A stretch of 64,000 nt of DNA from Patescibacteria group bacterium (GTDB lineage Bacteria > Patescibacteriota > Patescibacteriia > Patescibacteriales > UBA12465): positions 34,017 through 98,016 of the forward strand of contig JBAZBP010000003.1 in assembly GCA_041671365.1 (NCBI GenBank), given 5' to 3'. Positions 9,339 through 44,092 of the stretch are shown here, piece after piece. Under the pieces are notes generated by a model. It saw only the letters and a list, made by a program, of their open reading frames with translations. It did no database searches and had not been told where the DNA came from. The position numbers were made by a program, and so were the translations under genes. The number at the start of each line of letters is the position of its first letter. Positions within the stretch are counted from its first letter, which is position 1.

Positions 9339-9374
9339 TTTGCTGATAAATAAGCGCCATATTTAAACTAAATT

Positions 9375-9409
9375 AGAGCTCTTTGATAACTAATCAAGAG
9401 CTCTTTTTT
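9375..9409 (+). terminator. Rho-independent terminator closing the + strand glycosyltransferase operon
   Basis: AGAGCTCTTTGAT / ATCAAGAGCTCT stem (12 bp with one bulged T), a 5-nt loop, then a T6 run, 37 nt after the GT4 stop. Confidence 0.6.
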
Positions 9410-9566
9410 AGTTTAAGGCTTAACTTCGTTTAAAAAGTGCCAGCTAAGTTTTATAAATATTTTATCTATAATTTATTAATATTTTATCTAAGATTAGCGG
9501 TTATTAGGCTTGATTGAAGTTAGCGGAAGTGCTATTATAAATATGTAACTATTAGAGTTTAAATTT

Positions 9567-10412
9567 ATGGCTATTAAAAATGTCGAAAAAAAATTAATTA
9601 ATGACCCCGCGCTTTTTAAGGGGCAAAAAATTCGGCGCGTTATTTTTAATAATGAATGGTGGTTTTCGGTGGTTGATGTTTGCGGGGTATTAACTAATAG
9701 TTCTGATGCCGGCGCTTATTGGCGTAAATTGAAACAAAGGTTAAAGGACGAAGCCAATGAAGCCGTGACATTTTGTCACGGGTTGAAATTAGAAGCTCCG
9801 GATGGGAAAATGCATGAAACCGACTGTGCTAATACCGAGGGCATATTTCGCATTATTCAATCTGTTCCGTCGCCTAAAGCGGAACCTTTCAAGCGTTGGC
9901 TGGCGAAAGTGGGTTATGAACGCGTCCAGGAAATTGCCGACCCAGAACTGGCTACTAAAAGAACAAGAAAACTTTATAAATTAAAGGGTTATAGCGATTC
10001 TTGGATTGAGAAGCGGATGCGCGGTATCGCTATTCGGGAAGAATTGACTGATGAATGGAAAAATAGAGGGGCGCGAGAAAAAAAAGATTATGAAATTTTA
10101 ATGGCTGAAATATCAAAAGCAACTTTTGGCTTAACGCCGACCCAATATAAAAAAGTTAAAGGTTTAGAAAAAGAAAATTTGCGCGATCATATGGACGATC
10201 TCGAACTTATTTTTAACATGTTGGGTGAACGGTCCACTACCGAAATTCATCGAGTTGAAAATTCGCAGGGCTTCAGCAAATTAAAAGACGACTCTAATGC
10301 GGGTGGCGATATTGCCGGAGATGCCCGAAAAAATTTAGAGAAGCGTCTTAAGCGGTCGGTTATAAATAAAAGAAATTTTTTAACGAATCAGGAGAATAAA
10401 AAAAATCTTTAA
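9567..10412 (+). CDS. BRO-N domain DNA-binding protein (prophage antirepressor-like)
   Basis: The N-terminus FKGQKIRRVIFNNEWWFSVVDVCGVLTNSSDAGAYWRKLKQRL matches the BRO-N pattern (phage/virus-associated DNA-binding domain). It is preceded by its own AT-rich upstream region after a terminator. Confidence 0.6.
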   Translation: MAIKNVEKKLINDPALFKGQKIRRVIFNNEWWFSVVDVCGVLTNSSDAGAYWRKLKQRLKDEANEAVTFCHGLKLEAPDGKMHETDCANTEGIFRIIQSVPSPKAEPFKRWLAKVGYERVQEIADPELATKRTRKLYKLKGYSDSWIEKRMRGIAIREELTDEWKNRGAREKKDYEILMAEISKATFGLTPTQYKKVKGLEKENLRDHMDDLELIFNMLGERSTTEIHRVENSQGFSKLKDDSNAGGDIAGDARKNLEKRLKRSVINKRNFLTNQENKKNL

Positions 10413-16613: not shown

Positions 16614-16623
16614 TTAAAATAAT

Positions 16624-17195: not shown

Positions 17196-18356
17196 ATGTT
17201 GCTAACCCTGGTTATATTTATTTTAGTTCTGTCGGTTCTGGTTTTTGCCCATGAATTCGGTCATTTTTTTACCGCGCGACGTTTCGGCGTTAAAGCGGAA
17301 GAATTTGGTTTCGGTTTTCCGCCGCGGGCGATCGGTTGGTATAAAAATCGTTATGGGCACTGGCGCCGCATTATTGGCGATCGAAGCGTGGAAAGTTTAA
17401 CGGCTAGCGAAGATGAAAATTTACATCCGGCCAGCCACGCCACGATTTATTCTTTAAATTGGTTGCCGATTGGCGGTTTTGTTAAAATTAAGGGTGAGAA
17501 TGGAGAGGGAAAAAATGACGATGATAGTTTCGCGGCTAAAAGCATCTGGAAACGAATTATAATTTTAGCGGCCGGAGTTATCATGAATATTATTTTGGCT
17601 TGGTTTTTATTTTCTCTCGGTTATTTAATCGGTTTACCGCAATCGACCGATACTGTTGGCAGTAATGCTCGAATTAGTGAATCGCAGGTTATTGTCGCTC
17701 AGGTTATGGCTAACTCAGCCGCTCTGCAAGCTGGACTTAAAGAAGGTGATATAATTAAGCGTATTAACTCTATAGATATTAGTACCGAGAAATCTTTGCA
17801 GGATACAATAGCGGCTAACGCCAACCGGGAAATTAATTTGGTGATTAAACGCGGTGAGGCCGAACAAACCGTTAAAGTTACGCCGGTATCTAAAGACGGC
17901 GGCCGCGCGACTATCGGTGTCGGAATTTTTTCTTCCGGCTTGGTCAGTTATCCTTTTTTCTCCGCTCTCTGGGAAGGGGTAAAAACGGAAGTCTGGGTTA
18001 TCGGTCAGATTTTTACTTCTCTGGGCGGTTTATTTTCAGAGATTTTTCACGGCAAAAATGTTAGCGACCAATTCGCCGGTCCGATTGGTATCGCCAATAT
18101 TACCGGTCAGGCCGCGCGTCTCGGTTTTACCTATTTATTGCAGTTTACGGCGCTGTTATCTTTGAATTTAGCAGTAATTAACATTTTACCGTTTCCGGCA
18201 CTGGACGGCGGCCGTATTTTATTTCTGTTGATTGAAAAAGCTAAAGGTAAGCCGGTGCGCCAGGAACTCGAGGCTTTAATCCATAATATTGGTTTTCTCT
18301 TGCTGATTGCTTTAGTTTTGTTTATTACTTATAAAGATATAGTTAAGTTATTTTAA
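17196..18356 (+). CDS. rseP: RIP metalloprotease RseP (site-2 protease, M50 family, with PDZ domain)
   Basis: HEFGHFFTARRFG (HExxH in TM1), a central PDZ-like segment, and NLAVINILPFPALDGGRI (the LDG motif). Confidence 0.9.
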   Translation: MLLTLVIFILVLSVLVFAHEFGHFFTARRFGVKAEEFGFGFPPRAIGWYKNRYGHWRRIIGDRSVESLTASEDENLHPASHATIYSLNWLPIGGFVKIKGENGEGKNDDDSFAAKSIWKRIIILAAGVIMNIILAWFLFSLGYLIGLPQSTDTVGSNARISESQVIVAQVMANSAALQAGLKEGDIIKRINSIDISTEKSLQDTIAANANREINLVIKRGEAEQTVKVTPVSKDGGRATIGVGIFSSGLVSYPFFSALWEGVKTEVWVIGQIFTSLGGLFSEIFHGKNVSDQFAGPIGIANITGQAARLGFTYLLQFTALLSLNLAVINILPFPALDGGRILFLLIEKAKGKPVRQELEALIHNIGFLLLIALVLFITYKDIVKLF

Positions 18357-18367
18357 GTAAATTTTAT

Positions 18368-18479
18368 GGCTTTAACGGCGATACTTTCGGGCGCCTGTAA
18401 TTTCGTAGAGTAAAAACGAGCCTTAGCGAGTTTTTGCCACAGAAATTACCGAAGCCAAGAAAGTGTTGCCGGTAAAGCC
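18368..18479 (+). repeat. Hairpin element copy A (112 nt), member of a three-copy structured intergenic family and candidate ncRNA
   Basis: The basal 21-bp helix is GGCTTTAACGGCGATACTTTC / GAAAGTGTTGCCGGTAAAGCC (1 mismatch, 2 G-T wobbles). The conserved core is GCGCCTGTAATTTCGTAGAGTAAAAA ... TTTTTGCCACAGAAATTACCGAAGCC and is shared with the copies at 35564 and 43572. Confidence 0.6.
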
Positions 18480-18496: not shown

Positions 18497-18820
18497 ATGA
18501 AAATCACTATAAAGTCGACTAAATTAGAACTAACCAAAGCCATTTCCGCTTATTTTCAGGCCAAAATGGATGCGGTTGAAAAATTTCTTGGAGATGTTAA
18601 AGTGATTAATTGCGACGTGGAGATTGAAAAGACTGTTGGCGGTCGGCATAAGGGGGAGATTTTTCGAGCCGAAGTAAATCTGGAAGTACCGCGTCAGTTA
18701 TTGCGGGTGGAAAAGACCGAAAAAGATTTATATAAAGCGATTGATAAAGTAAAAGATCACTTAGAACTGGTAATTAAGAAATATAAAGAAAAAATGATTG
18801 ATAAGAAACGAGGAAAATAA
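18497..18820 (+). CDS. hpf: Ribosome hibernation promoting factor / RaiA family (short form)
   Basis: 107 aa. MKITIKSTKLELTKAISAYFQAKMDAVEKFL and the ...FRAEVNLEV... beta-alpha-beta layout are typical of S30EA/HPF proteins. Confidence 0.85.
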   Translation: MKITIKSTKLELTKAISAYFQAKMDAVEKFLGDVKVINCDVEIEKTVGGRHKGEIFRAEVNLEVPRQLLRVEKTEKDLYKAIDKVKDHLELVIKKYKEKMIDKKRGK

Positions 18821-24652: not shown

Positions 24653-24705
24653 ATAGTTATAGTTATTATAGTTAGAATGTTTTATGTTAATAATTAGATT
24701 TTAAT

Positions 24706-31911: not shown

Positions 31912-31942
31912 AAACCCATTTTGTGTCCAACAAAATGGGTTT
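31912..31942. terminator. Bidirectional Rho-independent terminator between convergent htpX and the flotillin-like gene
   Basis: A perfect 13-bp stem AAACCCATTTTGT / ACAAAATGGGTTT with a 5-nt loop. Read on the minus strand it is followed by TTTTATTTT. The A/T-rich flanks allow function in both directions. Confidence 0.65.
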
Positions 31943-31968: not shown

Positions 31969-34050
31969 TTATTTAATTATCTCTGTTTCATTTGCAACAG
32001 GAGTTTTTTCTTTAAGAGATCCTCCAAGCTTTTGGACTAAAAGCCCAGAAAGAATTGGAAGTAGACCTGAACCATCAGAATTACCACCCTGGATTACGAT
32101 ATCCGGTGTAATCTTGATATTACCGATGGCAATCTGTTTTGAAATTTCAATTGCTACGATTCCTTCAGAGGTAAGGGCTTTTTTCTGTTCTTCGTAACCT
32201 TCCGCAATACCTTTTCCTTCGGCGGCAGCGGCAACGCCTTTAGCCTTACCAAGTAGTTCTGTTCCTTCGGCTTCGCCGGACATTTCTGCTTTTTTGGCTC
32301 CGCCCTTTCCTTCGGCATCAAGAATTGTTTTCTTCTTCAGGTTTTCAGCAATCTGAACATCGATGGACGACTGAACAAGAACGCCTTGCTTTTCTGCTTC
32401 GGCTTTCTTTGCTTCCATGGCGATACGGCCGTTTTGGGCTTCTGTTTCCTTACCGTACATATCTAATTGCTGTTCGGCAATAACTCGTGCTGTTTGAGTG
32501 GCCATTAAATCTGCGGGAAGATCAATTTGGCAAATAAGAACCGAAACCAATTCAACATGATATTTCGCGAGTTCTTCTCTGGTATGATCTTCTGCCTTTT
32601 TCTGCTCATCATGACGATCCTTCATGAAATTCATGGCCGATGTCGCTGAAGCTTGATTTCTGAAACTAGAATCAATCATCGGATGAATCACATGATTTAT
32701 GAGATTTTCAATAGAACCAATCTTTGCAATCATGTGAGGCGCCTGATCCGGTCGAATTCTGATAATTACTTTTACCGAGACATTCATCTGAAAAGCGTCT
32801 CCAGAAACTATTGCTAACGGATTGAATTGAGTTTTATCTCCTTCATCCCAATCAATTGTGATGTTTGTTGTATCAACAATATGAGGAATAAATGCCATAG
32901 TATTTAAATAATAAACACCGGGGCCGGAGACTTCTTCTTGAATACCGCGATATCCGTGAGCAACCACATACCGCTCAATTCCAACATCTAATCTTTTCTC
33001 AAGTTCCACAGCATCATCGGTGTTGGCGCCGATTTTTTCTTTAAGCTGTTGGATGGAAAGAGGTTCTTTCCCGACATTCGAAATGATAACGGCAACCTGA
33101 CCCCGTTGTACTTCGGCTACATTAGTATAATTGACTTCGAACATTAAAGGATTGATGTAGTAAGTTCCGGGTTTTAGAATATCAAGCTGCGGTCCTCTTT
33201 GACCGTGTTGATTGAGAAACGCTTGAGCATCCTGGAAGTTGCTATGACCTTCAACAGAGATAGCAATTAATTCATCCGGAGGAAGCGGTTCGCCGTCTTT
33301 GGCGGTTATCAAACCAACTTGTTTGGAAGTTACAATTGTGGCATCAACAATTTTGTAATTGAAAAGCCAAGTATTTATTCGGTGAGTTCCCGGTTGAAGA
33401 ATGTCAATCTGTGGTCCCTTTTGACCACCATTTTTAAGAAAAATATCTCCATTTGAGAAATTCTCATGACCTTCAATTCTTTTTCCCAATAATCTCCCAG
33501 GATCAAGTGGTTTTCCGTCAGTGGCAGTTACTATAGCTAATTGTCCTTTGGGGATTTCAATTTCATCAACCCCCACTTCGTTATTAACTTTCACTACTTC
33601 AAAAAGATAAGGATTAATCATGTATTGACCGGGAGGAAGAAATGCAACCTGTGGTCCTTTTTGTCCGCCGTTTTTAATAAAACCTTCGCCGTCTTGGAAA
33701 TTGTCACATTCTACGACTTTGGCAAATATTTGTCCGCTGGGAATTGTTGCCCCAGCCAATGCTCGGACCAGCCCTATTTTCCCCTCGTTAATGACCGTGA
33801 ATGGTTCCTTTTTGGTTTTGTATATAAAAGGAGGAAGTAACCAATGAAAGCCTGGACCGAGAGTTCTCGCCTGAAGACCAACTTCATCGCGAAGAGCTAC
33901 TGTACGCCCCACCATTTCTTTCCCTACATACTTTCTCTCAAGCAAGCATATATTTTCTCCTCTAACATTTACGCTAGCGTTGAGAGTTATTACTAAGATA
34001 AATATGCCTAGCAAAGCTAATAGCACACCCATGACAATAGTACTTTCCAT
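31969..34050 (-). CDS. SPFH/Band-7 flotillin-like membrane protein with tandem internal repeats
   Basis: It has an N-terminal TM helix and three ~75-80 aa repeats carrying NGGQKGPQ...L.PG.Y.INP..FEV. The C-terminal Ala/Glu/Lys-rich coiled-coil and flotillin-type tail is AEAEKQGVLVQS...AEGKGIAEGYEEQKKAL. Confidence 0.7.
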   Translation of the reverse strand: MESTIVMGVLLALLGIFILVITLNASVNVRGENICLLERKYVGKEMVGRTVALRDEVGLQARTLGPGFHWLLPPFIYKTKKEPFTVINEGKIGLVRALAGATIPSGQIFAKVVECDNFQDGEGFIKNGGQKGPQVAFLPPGQYMINPYLFEVVKVNNEVGVDEIEIPKGQLAIVTATDGKPLDPGRLLGKRIEGHENFSNGDIFLKNGGQKGPQIDILQPGTHRINTWLFNYKIVDATIVTSKQVGLITAKDGEPLPPDELIAISVEGHSNFQDAQAFLNQHGQRGPQLDILKPGTYYINPLMFEVNYTNVAEVQRGQVAVIISNVGKEPLSIQQLKEKIGANTDDAVELEKRLDVGIERYVVAHGYRGIQEEVSGPGVYYLNTMAFIPHIVDTTNITIDWDEGDKTQFNPLAIVSGDAFQMNVSVKVIIRIRPDQAPHMIAKIGSIENLINHVIHPMIDSSFRNQASATSAMNFMKDRHDEQKKAEDHTREELAKYHVELVSVLICQIDLPADLMATQTARVIAEQQLDMYGKETEAQNGRIAMEAKKAEAEKQGVLVQSSIDVQIAENLKKKTILDAEGKGGAKKAEMSGEAEGTELLGKAKGVAAAAEGKGIAEGYEEQKKALTSEGIVAIEISKQIAIGNIKITPDIVIQGGNSDGSGLLPILSGLLVQKLGGSLKEKTPVANETEIIK

Positions 34051-34275
34051 ATTTTACTCCTATAGATTGATTTTGCTTACTCTTTTTAGGATTTTCAGCA
34101 TTCTCCGTTAGTTTGTTAAAGATCTAACTAAAAAATATAGCATACTATCTATATTTATGTCAAGACCATGAAAATATTGGGAAAATTAATAATTTGTATT
34201 TTTAAATTGTAAAGCCTATTTATTTAAATCTTAAAATAGTTTATAATTTACATAATAATAAAATTAGCTAATGTT

Positions 34276-35577
34276 ATGAAAAAACTAGAACTTCTCGCTC
34301 CCGCCGGCAATAAATTAAAAATGAAAACTGCTTTCGCTTACGGTGCGGATGCGGTTTATTTAGGTATTCCGGATTTTTCTTTACGGGTTAGGATTAATGA
34401 TTTTGACTTAGCGGGCGTTAAAGACGCCGTCCAATATGCTCACCAAAATAAAAAAAAGGTTTATGTGACGGTTAATATTTTTGCCCATAATAAACATTTA
34501 AAAAAATTACCGGCTTATTTAAAACAACTCAGGGTTATGAAGGTAGATGCTTTAATTGCGTCTGACCCCGGAATTATTGCTCTGATTAAAAAGGCTTGGC
34601 CAAAAGCAGAAATTCATTTATCCACTCAGGCTAATTGTACTAATCTAGAGGCGGTGAAGTTTTGGGCGAATCAAGGACTAAAGCGTATTATTTTAGGACG
34701 GGAAGTAACCTTGGCTGAAATAAAAGAAATTCATCGGGCCGCACCGAAAGTAGAATTAGAATATTTTGTTCACGGAGCGATGTGTATGGCTTATTCCGGC
34801 CGCTGTTTTTTGTCTAAATTATTCGTGGGCCGCAGCGCTAATCTGGGCGACTGTGCTCAGCCTTGCCGCTGGCCCTATGAGGTTCAGAAATTTAAATTAA
34901 AAACCGGTGAGCACGAAGAAGAATTAGAATTGGTTGAAGAAACGCACGGCACTTATCTTTTAAATTCTAAGGATTTATGTTTAATTAAGTATTTAAAAGA
35001 ACTGGCCGCCGCCGGCATTACCAGTTTTAAGATTGAAGGCCGGGCGAAAAGTGTTTACTATCAGGCCACCGTTGTCGGAGTTTACCGCCGCGCTTTAGAT
35101 TTATTAAATAAAAAATTGCCGGCGGTAAAATTAAAAGCAGAATTAAATTATTTATACTCGGAGCTGGAAACAAAACTAGTGCAGCGCGGCTATACCACGG
35201 GATTTTTATTGGGCGAGAAGGCCGACCAAAATATTATAAATTCTCATAACAAAAGTGAGTGGGAATTTTGCGGCCAAGTTATCGCGCCGCTTCGGAGTTT
35301 AAAAAAAATTAACGTTACGCCCGGCTACCAGTTAATTTATTTTCAAGTTCATAATACTGTTAGAATCAAGGAAGAATTGGAGATTATTCGGCCTGATTAT
35401 GATATAATTAAAATACGCCCCCTAATGTTATGGAATGCCAAGACCGGGGAAAAAATAACCGAAGCGCATGGCGGCGGAGGCGGGCAGATTGGAGTTTTGG
35501 AAGTGCCAGTCACGGTCGGAAAGATTCCGATTTTAACAGTCGTTAGAAGACTTATTTCTAGTCGGAAGCGACAATAA
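34276..35577 (+). CDS. Peptidase U32 family protein
   Basis: MKKLELLAPAGN...AFAYGADAVYLG and the E.FVHGAMCMAYSGRCFLS cysteine-rich motif are U32 (collagenase-like/RlhA-type) hallmarks. Confidence 0.85.
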   Translation: MKKLELLAPAGNKLKMKTAFAYGADAVYLGIPDFSLRVRINDFDLAGVKDAVQYAHQNKKKVYVTVNIFAHNKHLKKLPAYLKQLRVMKVDALIASDPGIIALIKKAWPKAEIHLSTQANCTNLEAVKFWANQGLKRIILGREVTLAEIKEIHRAAPKVELEYFVHGAMCMAYSGRCFLSKLFVGRSANLGDCAQPCRWPYEVQKFKLKTGEHEEELELVEETHGTYLLNSKDLCLIKYLKELAAAGITSFKIEGRAKSVYYQATVVGVYRRALDLLNKKLPAVKLKAELNYLYSELETKLVQRGYTTGFLLGEKADQNIINSHNKSEWEFCGQVIAPLRSLKKINVTPGYQLIYFQVHNTVRIKEELEIIRPDYDIIKIRPLMLWNAKTGEKITEAHGGGGGQIGVLEVPVTVGKIPILTVVRRLISSRKRQ

Positions 35578-35674
35578 TATTTCTTCGCTTCGGTCATTTC
35601 TGTGGCAAAAATTAGCTGAAGCTAATTTTTACTCTACGAAATGACAGGCGCTCAGAAACATCATTGTCGCTTCC
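35564..35674 (-). repeat. Hairpin element copy B (111 nt), with the conserved core on the minus strand
   Basis: The reverse complement reads GAGCGCCTGTCATTTCGTAGAGTAAAAATTAGC TTCA GCTAATTTTTGCCACAGAAATGACCGAAGCGAAGAAA. The basal helix is GGAAGCGACAAT / ATTGTCGCTTCC, and its 5' arm is the last codons plus the stop of the U32 gene. Confidence 0.6.
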
Positions 35675-35704: not shown

Positions 35705-36283
35705 ATGATTTCATTTCTACGCGGACGAGTAATCAACAAAGGACTTAATTATGCAATCATTGAAACCGGCAATATCGGTTACCAAGTTTTTGCCGGTGAA
35801 AATTTTTTGAATGATCTAAAAATCGATAATGAAGTAGAAATTTATACTCATCATCAGGTTCGAGAAGAAGCCAGCGATTTATACGGTTTTAAAACTTTAG
35901 AAGATTTAGAATTATTTGAATTATTATTAACCGTTTCCGGCGTCGGACCAAAATCGGCTTTAGGCGTTTTAACCATAGCTTCGGCCAGCGATATTAAAGA
36001 GGCGATTATTCGCGGTGACGCTAATTTACTGACTAAAGTATCCGGTATCGGTAAAAAAACGGCGGAACGTTTAGTTTTGGAATTAAAAACCAAAATTTTA
36101 CGCTTTAGTTCGACCGCGACAACCGACAACTCTTCCTTGGTCGGCAGCGATGAAATTGAAGCCTTAATGTCTTTAGGCTATTCTTTTTCTGAGGCGCGGT
36201 CCGCCTTAAATTTAGTTGATTCGGCGATTATTGATAGCGGCGAGCGGGTTAAGGCGGCACTGCGGAAAATAGCCAAAAAATAG
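35705..36283 (+). CDS. ruvA: Holliday junction DNA helicase subunit RuvA
   Basis: MISFLRGRV...GYQVF (OB domain), LLTVSGVGPKSAL and KVSGIGKKTAERL (two HhH motifs), and a C-terminal domain III. Confidence 0.9.
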   Translation: MISFLRGRVINKGLNYAIIETGNIGYQVFAGENFLNDLKIDNEVEIYTHHQVREEASDLYGFKTLEDLELFELLLTVSGVGPKSALGVLTIASASDIKEAIIRGDANLLTKVSGIGKKTAERLVLELKTKILRFSSTATTDNSSLVGSDEIEALMSLGYSFSEARSALNLVDSAIIDSGERVKAALRKIAKK

Positions 36284-43104: not shown

Positions 43105-43557
43105 ATGCTTCAAGACGTGATTATCAAAAAAATTGATAAATATACAGACGAACGCGGTTGGTTAATGGAAATCTTTCGTCGCGATGAATTAAATTTTACG
43201 CCGGCCATGTCTTATGTTAGTCTGACTAATCCGGGCGTAACTCGTGGACCGCACGAACATAAGACACAGAGCGATTGTTTTGTCTTTTTAGGTCCGGGCA
43301 GTTTTCGTCTCTTTCTTTGGGATCGTCGTAAAGACTCAACTACTGTCGGCGAGTCGATAGAAATAGAAGTTGGGGAAAATAATCCGAGTTTAGTGATTGT
43401 TCCGCCGGGAGTGGTCCATGGTTATAAATGTATTTCCGATGTTCCGGCTTTGAGTATTAATTTACCGGATAAATTATATAAGGGCGAGGGGAAGAAAGAA
43501 GAAATAGATGAAATTAGGTGGGAAAAGGATCCGGAGTCGCCATATAAGATAAGTTAA
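43105..43557 (+). CDS. dTDP-4-dehydrorhamnose 3,5-epimerase-like cupin (RmlC family, short form)
   Basis: DERGWLMEIFR...RGPHEH...VPPGVVHGY matches the RmlC/cupin catalytic strand pattern. At 150 aa it is shorter than canonical RmlC. Confidence 0.65.
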   Translation: MLQDVIIKKIDKYTDERGWLMEIFRRDELNFTPAMSYVSLTNPGVTRGPHEHKTQSDCFVFLGPGSFRLFLWDRRKDSTTVGESIEIEVGENNPSLVIVPPGVVHGYKCISDVPALSINLPDKLYKGEGKKEEIDEIRWEKDPESPYKIS

Positions 43558-43571
43558 ATTTTAGATTTGAA

Positions 43572-43685
43572 GTAATTCGAAATTATATTTTAGAGAGCGA
43601 TTGTTTTTTTCGTAGAGCAAAAATGAATTTTAATTCATTTTTGCCCCAGAAAATAACTAGCGAACAAAATATAATTTCGAATTAC
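43572..43685 (+). repeat. Hairpin element copy C (114 nt), a diverged member of the family
   Basis: A perfect 20-bp basal helix GTAATTCGAAATTATATTTT / AAAATATAATTTCGAATTAC. The core is GAGCGATTGTTTTTTTCGTAGAGCAAAAATGAAT TTTA ATTCATTTTTGCCCCAGAAAATAACTAGCGAAC. Confidence 0.5.
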
Positions 43686-43696
43686 CGGTCAACCAT

Positions 43697-44092
43697 ATGT
43701 GTATTTTTTGTAAAATCATTGCCGGAGAGATTCCGGCCTATAAGGTTTACGAAGATGATTCTGTTTTAGCTTTTTTGGATATTCAGCCGGTCAATCCGGG
43801 GCATGTTTTAGTTGTTTCTAAAAAACATTATAAGAACTTAGAAGAGATACCCGAAGATGATTTAAAAATTTTAATTGTGGCCGTTAAAACAATCGGTCGT
43901 CTGTTGAAAGATAAATTAGGGATAGACGGCTATAACGCCTCGACTAACAATGATCCGGCGGCCGGACAGATTATTCCGCATATTCATTTTCATGTTATTC
44001 CGCGTCACGCCGGCGATGGCCACGAATCTTGGTCGCGCGGCGAATATGCTCCAGGAGAACCAGAAGAGATAGTTAAAAAATTATTATCCTAA
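43697..44092 (+). CDS. HIT family (histidine triad) nucleotide-binding protein
   Basis: CIFCKII...AFLDIQPVNPGHVLVV...IPHIHFHVIPR (the HxHxHxx motif). Confidence 0.9.
   Translation: MCIFCKIIAGEIPAYKVYEDDSVLAFLDIQPVNPGHVLVVSKKHYKNLEEIPEDDLKILIVAVKTIGRLLKDKLGIDGYNASTNNDPAAGQIIPHIHFHVIPRHAGDGHESWSRGEYAPGEPEEIVKKLLS

Follow-up and report, generated by a model that had tools for sequence, protein, structure and literature searches.

A family of covarying, invertible hairpins at gene junctions of Patescibacteria, compared with REPINs and other palindromic repeats

Introduction

Elements of the IS200/IS605 family have no terminal inverted repeats, make no target-site duplication and are strand-specific. 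REPINs are palindromic repeats whose conserved units are linked to a spacer; its sequence differs in each copy, and in each it folds into a hairpin (PMC3337134). TIGR systems, which occur in Patescibacteria, have units with unpaired spacers bracketed by box C/D, in arrays beside a Tas gene (PMC12045711). Here, we analyze a family of intergenic hairpins of about 114 nt, noticed in a stretch of 64,000 nucleotides from a Patescibacteria group bacterium (assembly GCA_041671365.1, contig JBAZBP010000003.1, positions 34,017 to 98,016 of the forward strand). This whole stretch is called the window below, and positions are counted from its first letter.

Patescibacteria are ultra-small bacteria with genomes of about 1 Mb, in which neighboring genes are often 1–4 nt apart. 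An earlier examination of the window, made from its letters and open reading frames (ORFs) and called here the sequence-only reading, had described three hairpin copies and proposed that they were a structured RNA of no known class. The comparison with related loci, cited by our locus numbers (L010 and so on), shows that one strand of the hairpin has been selected to fold and that the hairpin turns over at its own site.

Results

Hairpin Copies in the Window and in Related Genomes

The window contains exactly three copies of the element, A, B and C, at the coordinates and with the conserved halves given in the sequence-only reading. Two conserved query strings (15–16-mers), TTTCGTAGAGYAAAAA and TTTTTGCCMCAGAAA, each have three exact matches in the window, one per copy. 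A covariance model, as the same reading had proposed, was built and run over the 64 kb with filters off; it recovered A, B and C at 90–115 bits, followed by a next best match at 18 bits. No further or diverged copies were found in the window by this unfiltered search, the low-scoring matches being plain hairpins or terminators. Each window copy folds as one long hairpin. Only the core is common to the three; their stems are unrelated, and C has a different core subtype. The copies are listed with their minimum free energy (MFE), their z-score against dinucleotide shuffles, their model score and their neighbors:

18368..18479, plus strand: copy A, whole hairpin of 112 nt (MFE -54.9, z -8.3, 99.6 bits), between an RseP-like M50 protease gene (17196-18356) and an HPF gene (18497-18820), sense to both
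18389..18457, plus strand: conserved core of copy A
35564..35674, folded strand minus: copy B, whole hairpin of 111 nt (MFE -59.4, z -12.7, 115.4 bits), between a U32 peptidase gene (34276-35577) and ruvA (35705-36283), antisense to both
35585..35653, minus strand: conserved core of copy B, from the GAGCGC module to its partner AAGCGA
43572..43685, plus strand: copy C, whole hairpin of 114 nt (MFE -40.5, z -10.7, 89.8 bits), between a dTDP-sugar-isomerase-like gene (43105-43557) and a HIT-family gene (43697-44092), sense to both
43572-43591 and 43666-43685, plus strand: perfect 20-nt arms of copy C
43595..43665, plus strand: conserved core of copy C, a more diverged subtype, from the GAGCGA module to CUAGCGAAC

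Related genomes and metagenomes yielded 45 additional distinct copies, all on contigs of Patescibacteria type. A pattern scan gave 14 true matches in GTDB species genomes and about 30 in JGI metagenomes, and all of these matches were on low-GC contigs of the same type. The family is lineage-specific and belongs to one group of Patescibacteria, with relatives labeled Falkowbacteria (one of them at 77% RuvA identity). Several metagenome-assembled genomes titled uncultured Gammaproteobacteria (L002, L005-L008, L011, L013-L015) match the window in gene order at 65–80% identity, which makes that label doubtful. There were no pattern matches in viral contigs, and copy B had no blastn match in phage and plasmid collections. 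A near-identical stretch of ~140 nt in about ten metagenome contigs, GTAGAGCAAAGTTGGTACTGTTAGTTCACAATTTGCCACAGAA, matches the pattern by chance and is unrelated to the hairpin family (L019, L035, L038, L041, L044, L050, L064, L066, L071 and L072).

The sequence-only reading could not match the core to a known RNA class, and no Rfam 15 family reached its threshold for the element. At gathering thresholds, the whole window gave only DUF805b and no family for the element; in E-value mode, A, B and C matched generic miRNA-precursor hairpins at 12–29 bits, against thresholds of 50–230. Literature searches found no published description of the element. The DUF805b RNA motif itself (34074-34108, minus strand, 40.2 bits against a threshold of 35.6) lies just upstream of a minus-strand gene for an SPFH/Band-7 domain protein (31969-34050).

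One Strand of the Hairpin Is Selected to Fold

Structure statistics were computed on 42 distinct copies aligned to the covariance model, which has 41 pairs. Paired cells amounted to 92.4%, compared with 69.1% in shuffles, and none of 500 shuffles was as high. Compensatory, double-sided changes were seen at 29 of the 41 pairs, and the covariation score was 0.595, falling to 0.06–0.085 when the partners were slid by 1–3 columns. All four helices covary, including a GC/CG step of two pairs, one of which is G-C in 38 copies and A-U in 4, and the other C-G in 36 and U-A in 4. Selection on structure, proposed earlier from the three window copies, is thus borne out by heavy covariation in every helix.

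Where one strand has a G·U pair, its complement has an A·C mismatch, and transitions yield both equally. In the paired columns, however, G·U and U·G pairs numbered 51 and A·C and C·A mismatches 8; in the outer stem alone, the counts were 36 and 6. The sequence-only reading had deduced the folded strand from the wobble pairs of copy A, and this asymmetry both agrees with that argument and extends it to the whole family. Taken with the occurrence of copies in both genomic orientations, the asymmetry shows selection for pairing of the strand that carries GUAGAG as a single strand, and neither a symmetric cruciform nor a double-stranded binding site would account for it. This top strand also folds more stably than the bottom strand in 28 of the 42 copies with RNA parameters and in 29 with DNA parameters. 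The GUAGAG strand has therefore been selected to fold into a single rod-like hairpin.

Palindromes can be homogenized by template switching, and we considered whether the element is a functionless palindrome, the arms of which are kept complementary by templated (quasipalindrome) correction or by arm-to-arm conversion. Its outer stems fit this idea, as they are often long and perfect and diverge fast between close relatives yet stay paired. Templated correction would, however, erase asymmetric loops and mismatches, which are the best-conserved parts of the element, and it predicts no difference between G·U and A·C, where we counted 51 and 8. Moreover, useless inserts of 140 bp should not persist at junctions that measure 1–4 nt when empty. 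Strand asymmetry and loop conservation largely refute this explanation, which we regard as very improbable.

Organization of the Hairpin

Hairpin length is constrained across the family (median 114 nt, range 85–125). The outer stem has a locus-specific sequence and a median length of 22 bp, with perfect stems of up to 28–29 bp. Inside it lies a symmetric module, 5'-GAGCG(M)/(R)AGCGA-3', in which sheared-type G·A pairs stand on both sides of the covarying GC/CG step. Past the module follow, in order, a conserved U·C mismatch, a covarying helix of 7–8 bp, a 5x4 asymmetric loop, an A5:U5 tract and a variable apical stem-loop. The non-canonical pairs of the module are near-invariant, with G·A in 42 of 42 copies and A·G in 41, and the U·C mismatch is kept in 37. 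One non-Watson–Crick position covaries, being C·A in 24 copies and A·G in 15. In copy A, all on the plus strand, the parts of the core are:

18389-18394: GGGCGC module
18395-18397: CUG
18398-18404, paired with 18442-18448: middle helix
18405-18409: 5' loop, GUAGA
18410-18411, paired with 18436-18437: G-C and U·G pairs
18412-18416, paired with 18431-18435: A5 and U5
18417-18421, paired with 18426-18430: apical stem
18422-18425: tetraloop, CUUA
18438-18441: 3' loop, CACA
18449-18451: CCG
18452-18457: AAGCCA module

The fold agrees with most of the sequence-only reading. The compensatory change between A and B (UAAUUUC/GAAAUUA and UCAUUUC/GAAAUGA), the tetraloops CUUA, UUCA and UUUA, and the perfect 20-bp basal stem of copy C had all been described correctly. 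Two details had not: the basal helix of copy B, given as 12 bp, has 21 bp including two G·U pairs, and the apical CGAGC/GCGAG of copy A, given as paired, forms C-G, G·A, A·G, G-C and C-G, i.e., a tandem G·A. This apical CGA...GAG form is common to many copies of the family. The asymmetric loop described as GUAGAGY opposite GCCMCA is indeed conserved, but the loop proper is smaller, with five nucleotides, GUAGA, opposite four, CMCA. The G of GAG pairs with the C of GCC in 42 of 42 copies, and the Y position of GUAGAGY pairs as C-G in 34, U·G in 7 and U-A in 1. The apparent invariance of GUAGAG and GCCNCAG is partly imposed by the pattern used in the database search; copies found only with the model read GUAAAG (L081, L084) or GUCAAG (L077:7456) in place of the former, and UCCACAG or ACCACAG in place of the latter.

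Several resemblances were considered and set aside. A likeness to the 11-nt GNRA receptor (UAUGA/UCUAAG) was rejected because its register does not fit the covarying helix. The loops of hairpin-ribozyme-like folds presumably differ from the element in loop size and in their purines. Copies A and B also contain small ORFs, encoding peptides of 15 and 11 residues that end in F-V-E and a stop: MALTAILSGACNFVE in A (18391-18413 region) and MMFLSACHFVE in B (35617-35655, minus strand), the latter with AGGAGG 9 nt upstream. Since frame and stop are lost in copies with GUAGAGC, these ORFs are probably coincidental.

In-Place Inversion

The hairpin between the U32 peptidase and RuvA genes is antisense in the window and in L083, but sense in L077, L080 and L084. 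Read along the folded strand, copy B nevertheless has ~97% core identity to L077 and L080, and the positions of G·U pairs in the proximal outer stem have moved with the core. At the isomerase/HIT junction, where the orthologue of copy C is sense in L077:7456 and flipped in L001 and L037, there are two cases of sister taxa with opposite orientations, and the whole pattern requires at least three inversions. The orthologues of copy A between the RseP and HPF genes have the same orientation in L010:2577, L006 and L067, and the opposite one in L051. These comparisons show that the whole hairpin turns over at its own site. Inversion in place explains the near-random orientation of the copies, and it means that orientation is no argument for or against an RNA role on short timescales. 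More generally, it warns that the test of whether an element is sense to its genes can mislead when the element is palindromic.

Inversion raises the question of an invertible regulatory cassette, i.e., a phase-variation switch in which the asymmetric core, flipping between its inverted-repeat arms, would alter downstream expression according to its orientation, either via the RNA or via a protein bound to the DNA. In favor of a switch, the hairpin has demonstrably turned over at its site, both among close relatives and among sister taxa, perfect inverted repeats stand on either side of the core, and copies lie directly upstream of start codons. Nevertheless, we consider a switch improbable. 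No promoter- or terminator-like signal differs between the orientations; the variable arms make a site-specific invertase unlikely, and Pfam scans of the window revealed none encoded nearby. SecA, RuvA, ParB and tRNA are not typical phase-variable functions, a single inversion suffices within one clade, so that flipping is not obviously fast, and invertibility leaves the covariation of the internal helices and the G·U asymmetry unaccounted for.

Gain, Loss and Copying Between Junctions

Three junctions that are empty in the window are filled elsewhere: 16614-16623 (hairpin at L010:643-764), 24653-24705 (hairpins in L015 and L049) and about 63231 (two tandem copies in L014). Conversely, the U32/RuvA junction, which is filled in the window and in relatives with 84–96% RuvA identity, is a gap of 1–31 nt in six relatives with 77–82% RuvA identity (L081, L085-L089), and the isomerase/HIT junction is a gap of 1–11 nt in five of these six (L085-L089). 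Four relatives with 77–81% RuvA identity have no copies at all in 82 kb of the syntenic block. In a tree of the two proteins that flank the isomerase/HIT junction, the filled loci form two separate clades with empty lineages between them, each with its own outer stem and core subtype; this junction was colonized separately in the two clades.

Copying between loci is seen in whole hairpins that are ~88% identical at the unknown/YebC, RNase HII/BipA and ParA/ParB junctions. Decay is seen in L023:930-1050 (plus strand), about 500 nt from an intact copy, where the 3' half UUUUUUCCACAGAAAUUAUCUAAGCG is intact and the 5' half and outer stem are degenerate. At filled sites, comparison with empty ones places the hairpin as a clean insertion after one gene's stop codon and before the start codon that follows. 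No target-site duplication was found in such comparisons at five junctions, and there are no conserved terminal inverted repeats, as the outer 10–20 bp differ between copies in one genome. The argument that the element is not a miniature inverted-repeat transposable element (MITE), made earlier from the variable ends of the window copies, is supported by both results. Insertion into pre-existing palindromes was rejected, since the empty junctions show no palindrome.

At the U32/RuvA junction, the stop codon of the U32 peptidase gene falls within the arm of copy B (35564-35577), and the C-terminus of the peptidase has been rewritten by insertion: it reads RRLISSRKRQ-stop in the window, RRKIKNKILKKQ-stop in L080 (L080:900-939) and RRKVK-stop at the empty site. 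In L077:150-300, a remnant of a window-type arm, GGAACCGACAATAATATT, is followed by a duplicated U32 gene end of ~25 nt. These sequences suggest repeated rearrangement at this junction. Overall, the unit behaves as a DNA piece that is gained at tight junctions, copied to unrelated ones, occasionally decaying, and inverted in place.

Placement and Transcription

The copies occupy junctions between genes, usually 0–40 nt from each neighboring ORF, which leaves no room for a promoter of their own. The neighbors are unrelated housekeeping genes: RseP/HPF-SecA, U32 peptidase/RuvA and sugar isomerase/HIT in the window, and ParA/ParB, RNase HII/BipA and unknown/YebC elsewhere. Copies between parA (soj) and parB (spo0J) lie at L052:5040-5143 and L073:387-492. 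No bases next to the hairpin base are conserved, and the flank composition is flat. As to the replication strand, the flank on which the top strand lies is G-rich in 26 cases and C-rich in 13, a weak correlation that is confounded by orthology. Co-directional junctions held 17 sense and 15 antisense copies, or 22 and 16 with later copies added.

At three of three orthologous loci, a tRNA-Thr(GGU) gene starts 2–3 nt after the hairpin on the same strand, so that the hairpin would form the 5' leader of the pre-tRNA:

L003:1972-2045: tRNA-Thr
L060:1145-1218: tRNA-Thr
L022:368-441: tRNA-Thr

A promoter scan found no shared sigma-70-like promoter inside the copies. TTGCCA as a -35 box, combined with TATAAT-like runs in the arms, was rejected because of inconsistent spacing and the negative scan. 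A terminator scan was likewise negative inside all three window copies. This bears on the idea of a bidirectional intrinsic terminator or attenuator (A5-stem-U5) with extra structure. The copies are intergenic, and the apical A5-N5-loop-N5-U5 does resemble a bidirectional terminator. However, the apical stem is short, weak and often has G·A pairs, the U-tract forms base pairs as part of a far longer helix, and the copies lie inside operons, at junctions of 1–4 nt when empty. Ordinary terminators also exist elsewhere in the window, e.g., at 9363-9416 and 31912-31942. We find this explanation hardly credible.

The terminator-like structure at 9363-9416 consists of a strong hairpin of 21 bp and a T-run after it; it stands ahead of a gene (9567-10412) that encodes a BRO-N domain, which is often associated with phages. 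That gene lies at the edge of a glycosyltransferase cluster, where the GC content falls to 0.34.

A more serious candidate, and the main rival of the reading favored below, is a structured, non-coding RNA module that serves the host. It would be transcribed as part of operon transcripts, and a specific RNA-binding protein or RNase would recognize its G·A/GC/G·A module and asymmetric loop, as a processing or stability signal or as a protein sponge. Inversion would then be a neutral by-product of the palindrome, and copies would be "on" in the sense orientation only. The strong covariation, the tolerance of G·U on one strand and the conserved non-canonical modules all speak for such an RNA. So do the cores of old orthologues, which are far better conserved than the flanking coding DNA, and the near absence of decayed copies. 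Copies inside tight operon junctions must be transcribed with them, those beside tRNA-Thr share the strand of the tRNA, and there is a slight excess of sense copies. On the other hand, ~40% of copies are antisense to both neighbors and are conserved as well as the sense copies, and the top scorer in the window is the antisense copy B. There is no promoter or terminator of its own, the neighbors have unrelated functions, and occupancy is patchy, down to the 82 kb of synteny without a copy. Gain at new junctions and copying between junctions are also unlike known bacterial RNA genes and cis-regulators. In our judgment an RNA module is possible but unlikely. The original proposal of a structured RNA thus fares unevenly: the fold is under selection, but mixed orientation, the lack of promoter and terminator, patchiness, flipping and copying do not fit an RNA gene or a cis-acting role.

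Discussion

We tentatively favor, while holding it a little short of probable, the reading of the family as a REPIN-like palindromic element, the folded single strand of which, more likely as DNA than as RNA, would be recognized by a trans-acting protein. This reading draws on the absence of terminal repeats and target duplications, on strand-specific folding, and on a pattern in which recognition appears to reside in unpaired and non-canonical nucleotides and the helices are needed merely as helices. The folded strand would be the substrate of a sequence- and structure-specific protein, presumably encoded elsewhere in the genome, which would read the conserved unpaired and non-canonical nucleotides, with the flanking helices serving merely as helices. 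The same logic applies to REP and REPIN hairpins with RAYT and to IS200/IS605 ends with HUH tyrosine transposases. Single-stranded DNA is favored as the recognized form, since the direction in which a copy is transcribed appears to make no difference to function; passive transcription within operons, and some RNA role acquired by co-option, are possible.

Several observations weigh against a REPIN-like element. Pfam scans of nearly all ORFs in the window gave only housekeeping and cell-envelope genes and no mobilizing enzyme, and a phmmer query with E. coli RayT had no match in 514 kb of related loci, this being a single distant query against partial genomes. Old orthologous copies keep near-identical cores where the flanks are only 65–77% identical, and a single copy was found in decay. 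Such a pattern resembles purifying selection acting on each copy, which would not be expected of a purely selfish repeat and points to a host-level function or to continual refreshment. Tandem G·A, U·C and the isosteric-looking C·A/A·G exchange are classic behavior of RNA motifs, and the hairpins at the three orthologous tRNA-Thr loci lie on the tRNA strand, 2–3 nt upstream. The architecture is inverted relative to REPINs, the center being conserved here while the ends vary, and a REPIN-like element does not account for how a new copy gains a distal stem that is locus-specific and yet palindromic.

A different view, which we consider rather unlikely, is that of a novel system of Patescibacteria in which host-maintained, invertible hairpin cassettes would display the module and the loop to a dedicated protein. 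The hairpin would be folded as RNA or as single-stranded DNA, and the protein would be neither a RAYT, nor Tas, nor an integron integrase. If true, such a system would represent a new mobilization mechanism for hairpins without termini, or an orientation-dependent control of expression at operon junctions.

Whatever its partner, a hairpin of ~114 nt that is conserved at many junctions of genomes this compact must earn its place or be efficient at replicating. With dozens of independent copies that covary abundantly, the family amounts to a natural experiment in the reading of single-stranded hairpins via their non-canonical modules. Should the folded strand be RNA, the family would be a new, widespread RNA class absent from Rfam.

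The known systems can be compared with the element in turn. TIGR-Tas shares variable, consistently palindromic stems that flank short conserved motifs, but TIGR units have two unpaired spacers of 8–12 nt in tandem arrays by a Tas gene with a Nop domain. An identity with TIGR-Tas was rejected because the unpaired segments are conserved here, the copies are dispersed, and the window encodes no Nop/Tas domain. Integron attC sites are imperfect palindromes of similar size, recognized by structure, folded on one strand, tightly placed between ORFs and variable in sequence. In attC, however, it is the base that is conserved, in the R''/R' boxes, and the center that varies; the element has the reverse. 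It was rejected as attC because the hairpin base lacks conserved boxes (RYYYAAC/GTTRRRY), its neighbors are housekeeping genes, its orientation is mixed and no integrase is found in the window, whereas attC sites form uniform cassette arrays by intI.

Rickettsia palindromic elements and the Correia and ERIC repeats are likewise palindromic repeats of ~100–150 bp that proliferate in compact genomes, are co-transcribed with their neighbors and have an unknown or trans-acting mobilization. Their consensus extends over the whole element including the termini, and Correia has terminal inverted repeats and a TA duplication; we know of no family of this type described with conserved internal loops and freely covarying stems. 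IS200/IS605 ends and the MITEs derived from them (PATEs) are also recognized as imperfect hairpins on one strand, with a part played by unpaired bases, and likewise lack terminal inverted repeats and target-site duplication. They have, however, a pair of different subterminal hairpins, along with conserved cleavage sites and a fixed tetranucleotide as target, where the element has a single hairpin, no conserved flank and no TnpA.

The likeness to REPINs is the most extensive. REPINs are also imperfect palindromes of ~90–120 nt, intergenic and present in many copies per genome, with two inverted conserved half-units joined by a segment that is always different and always forms a hairpin; in the element, two inverted conserved halves, roughly 70% similar, flank the variable paired apex. 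Neither shows signatures of terminal inverted repeats or of target-site duplication, both presumably fold single-stranded, and both persist long in a lineage; in most copies, the inner hairpin also has a GUAG-like tetranucleotide at its base. The conserved units of the element are, however, central, with the outermost ~10–20 bp variable but paired, whereas the REPs of a REPIN are at its ends. Copies within one genome are far less alike than in REPINs, for which high within-genome similarity, as a master sequence surrounded by a mutant cloud, is a feature. A REPIN genome also carries a RAYT gene, for a Y1 HUH transposase, with REPs typically on its flanks; a weak search found no RAYT among the window ORFs or in 514 kb of related DNA, and the host phylum is another one. 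In-place inversion is, to our knowledge, not a described feature of REPINs. If the partner proves to be an HUH-type or other enzyme, REPIN-like "domesticated replicators" would extend to the candidate phyla radiation (CPR) with a reversed architecture. Among known systems, then, the element is a small palindromic interspersed repeat, unusual in its conserved center with covarying ends, in its flipping in place and in its occurrence in ultra-compact CPR genomes.

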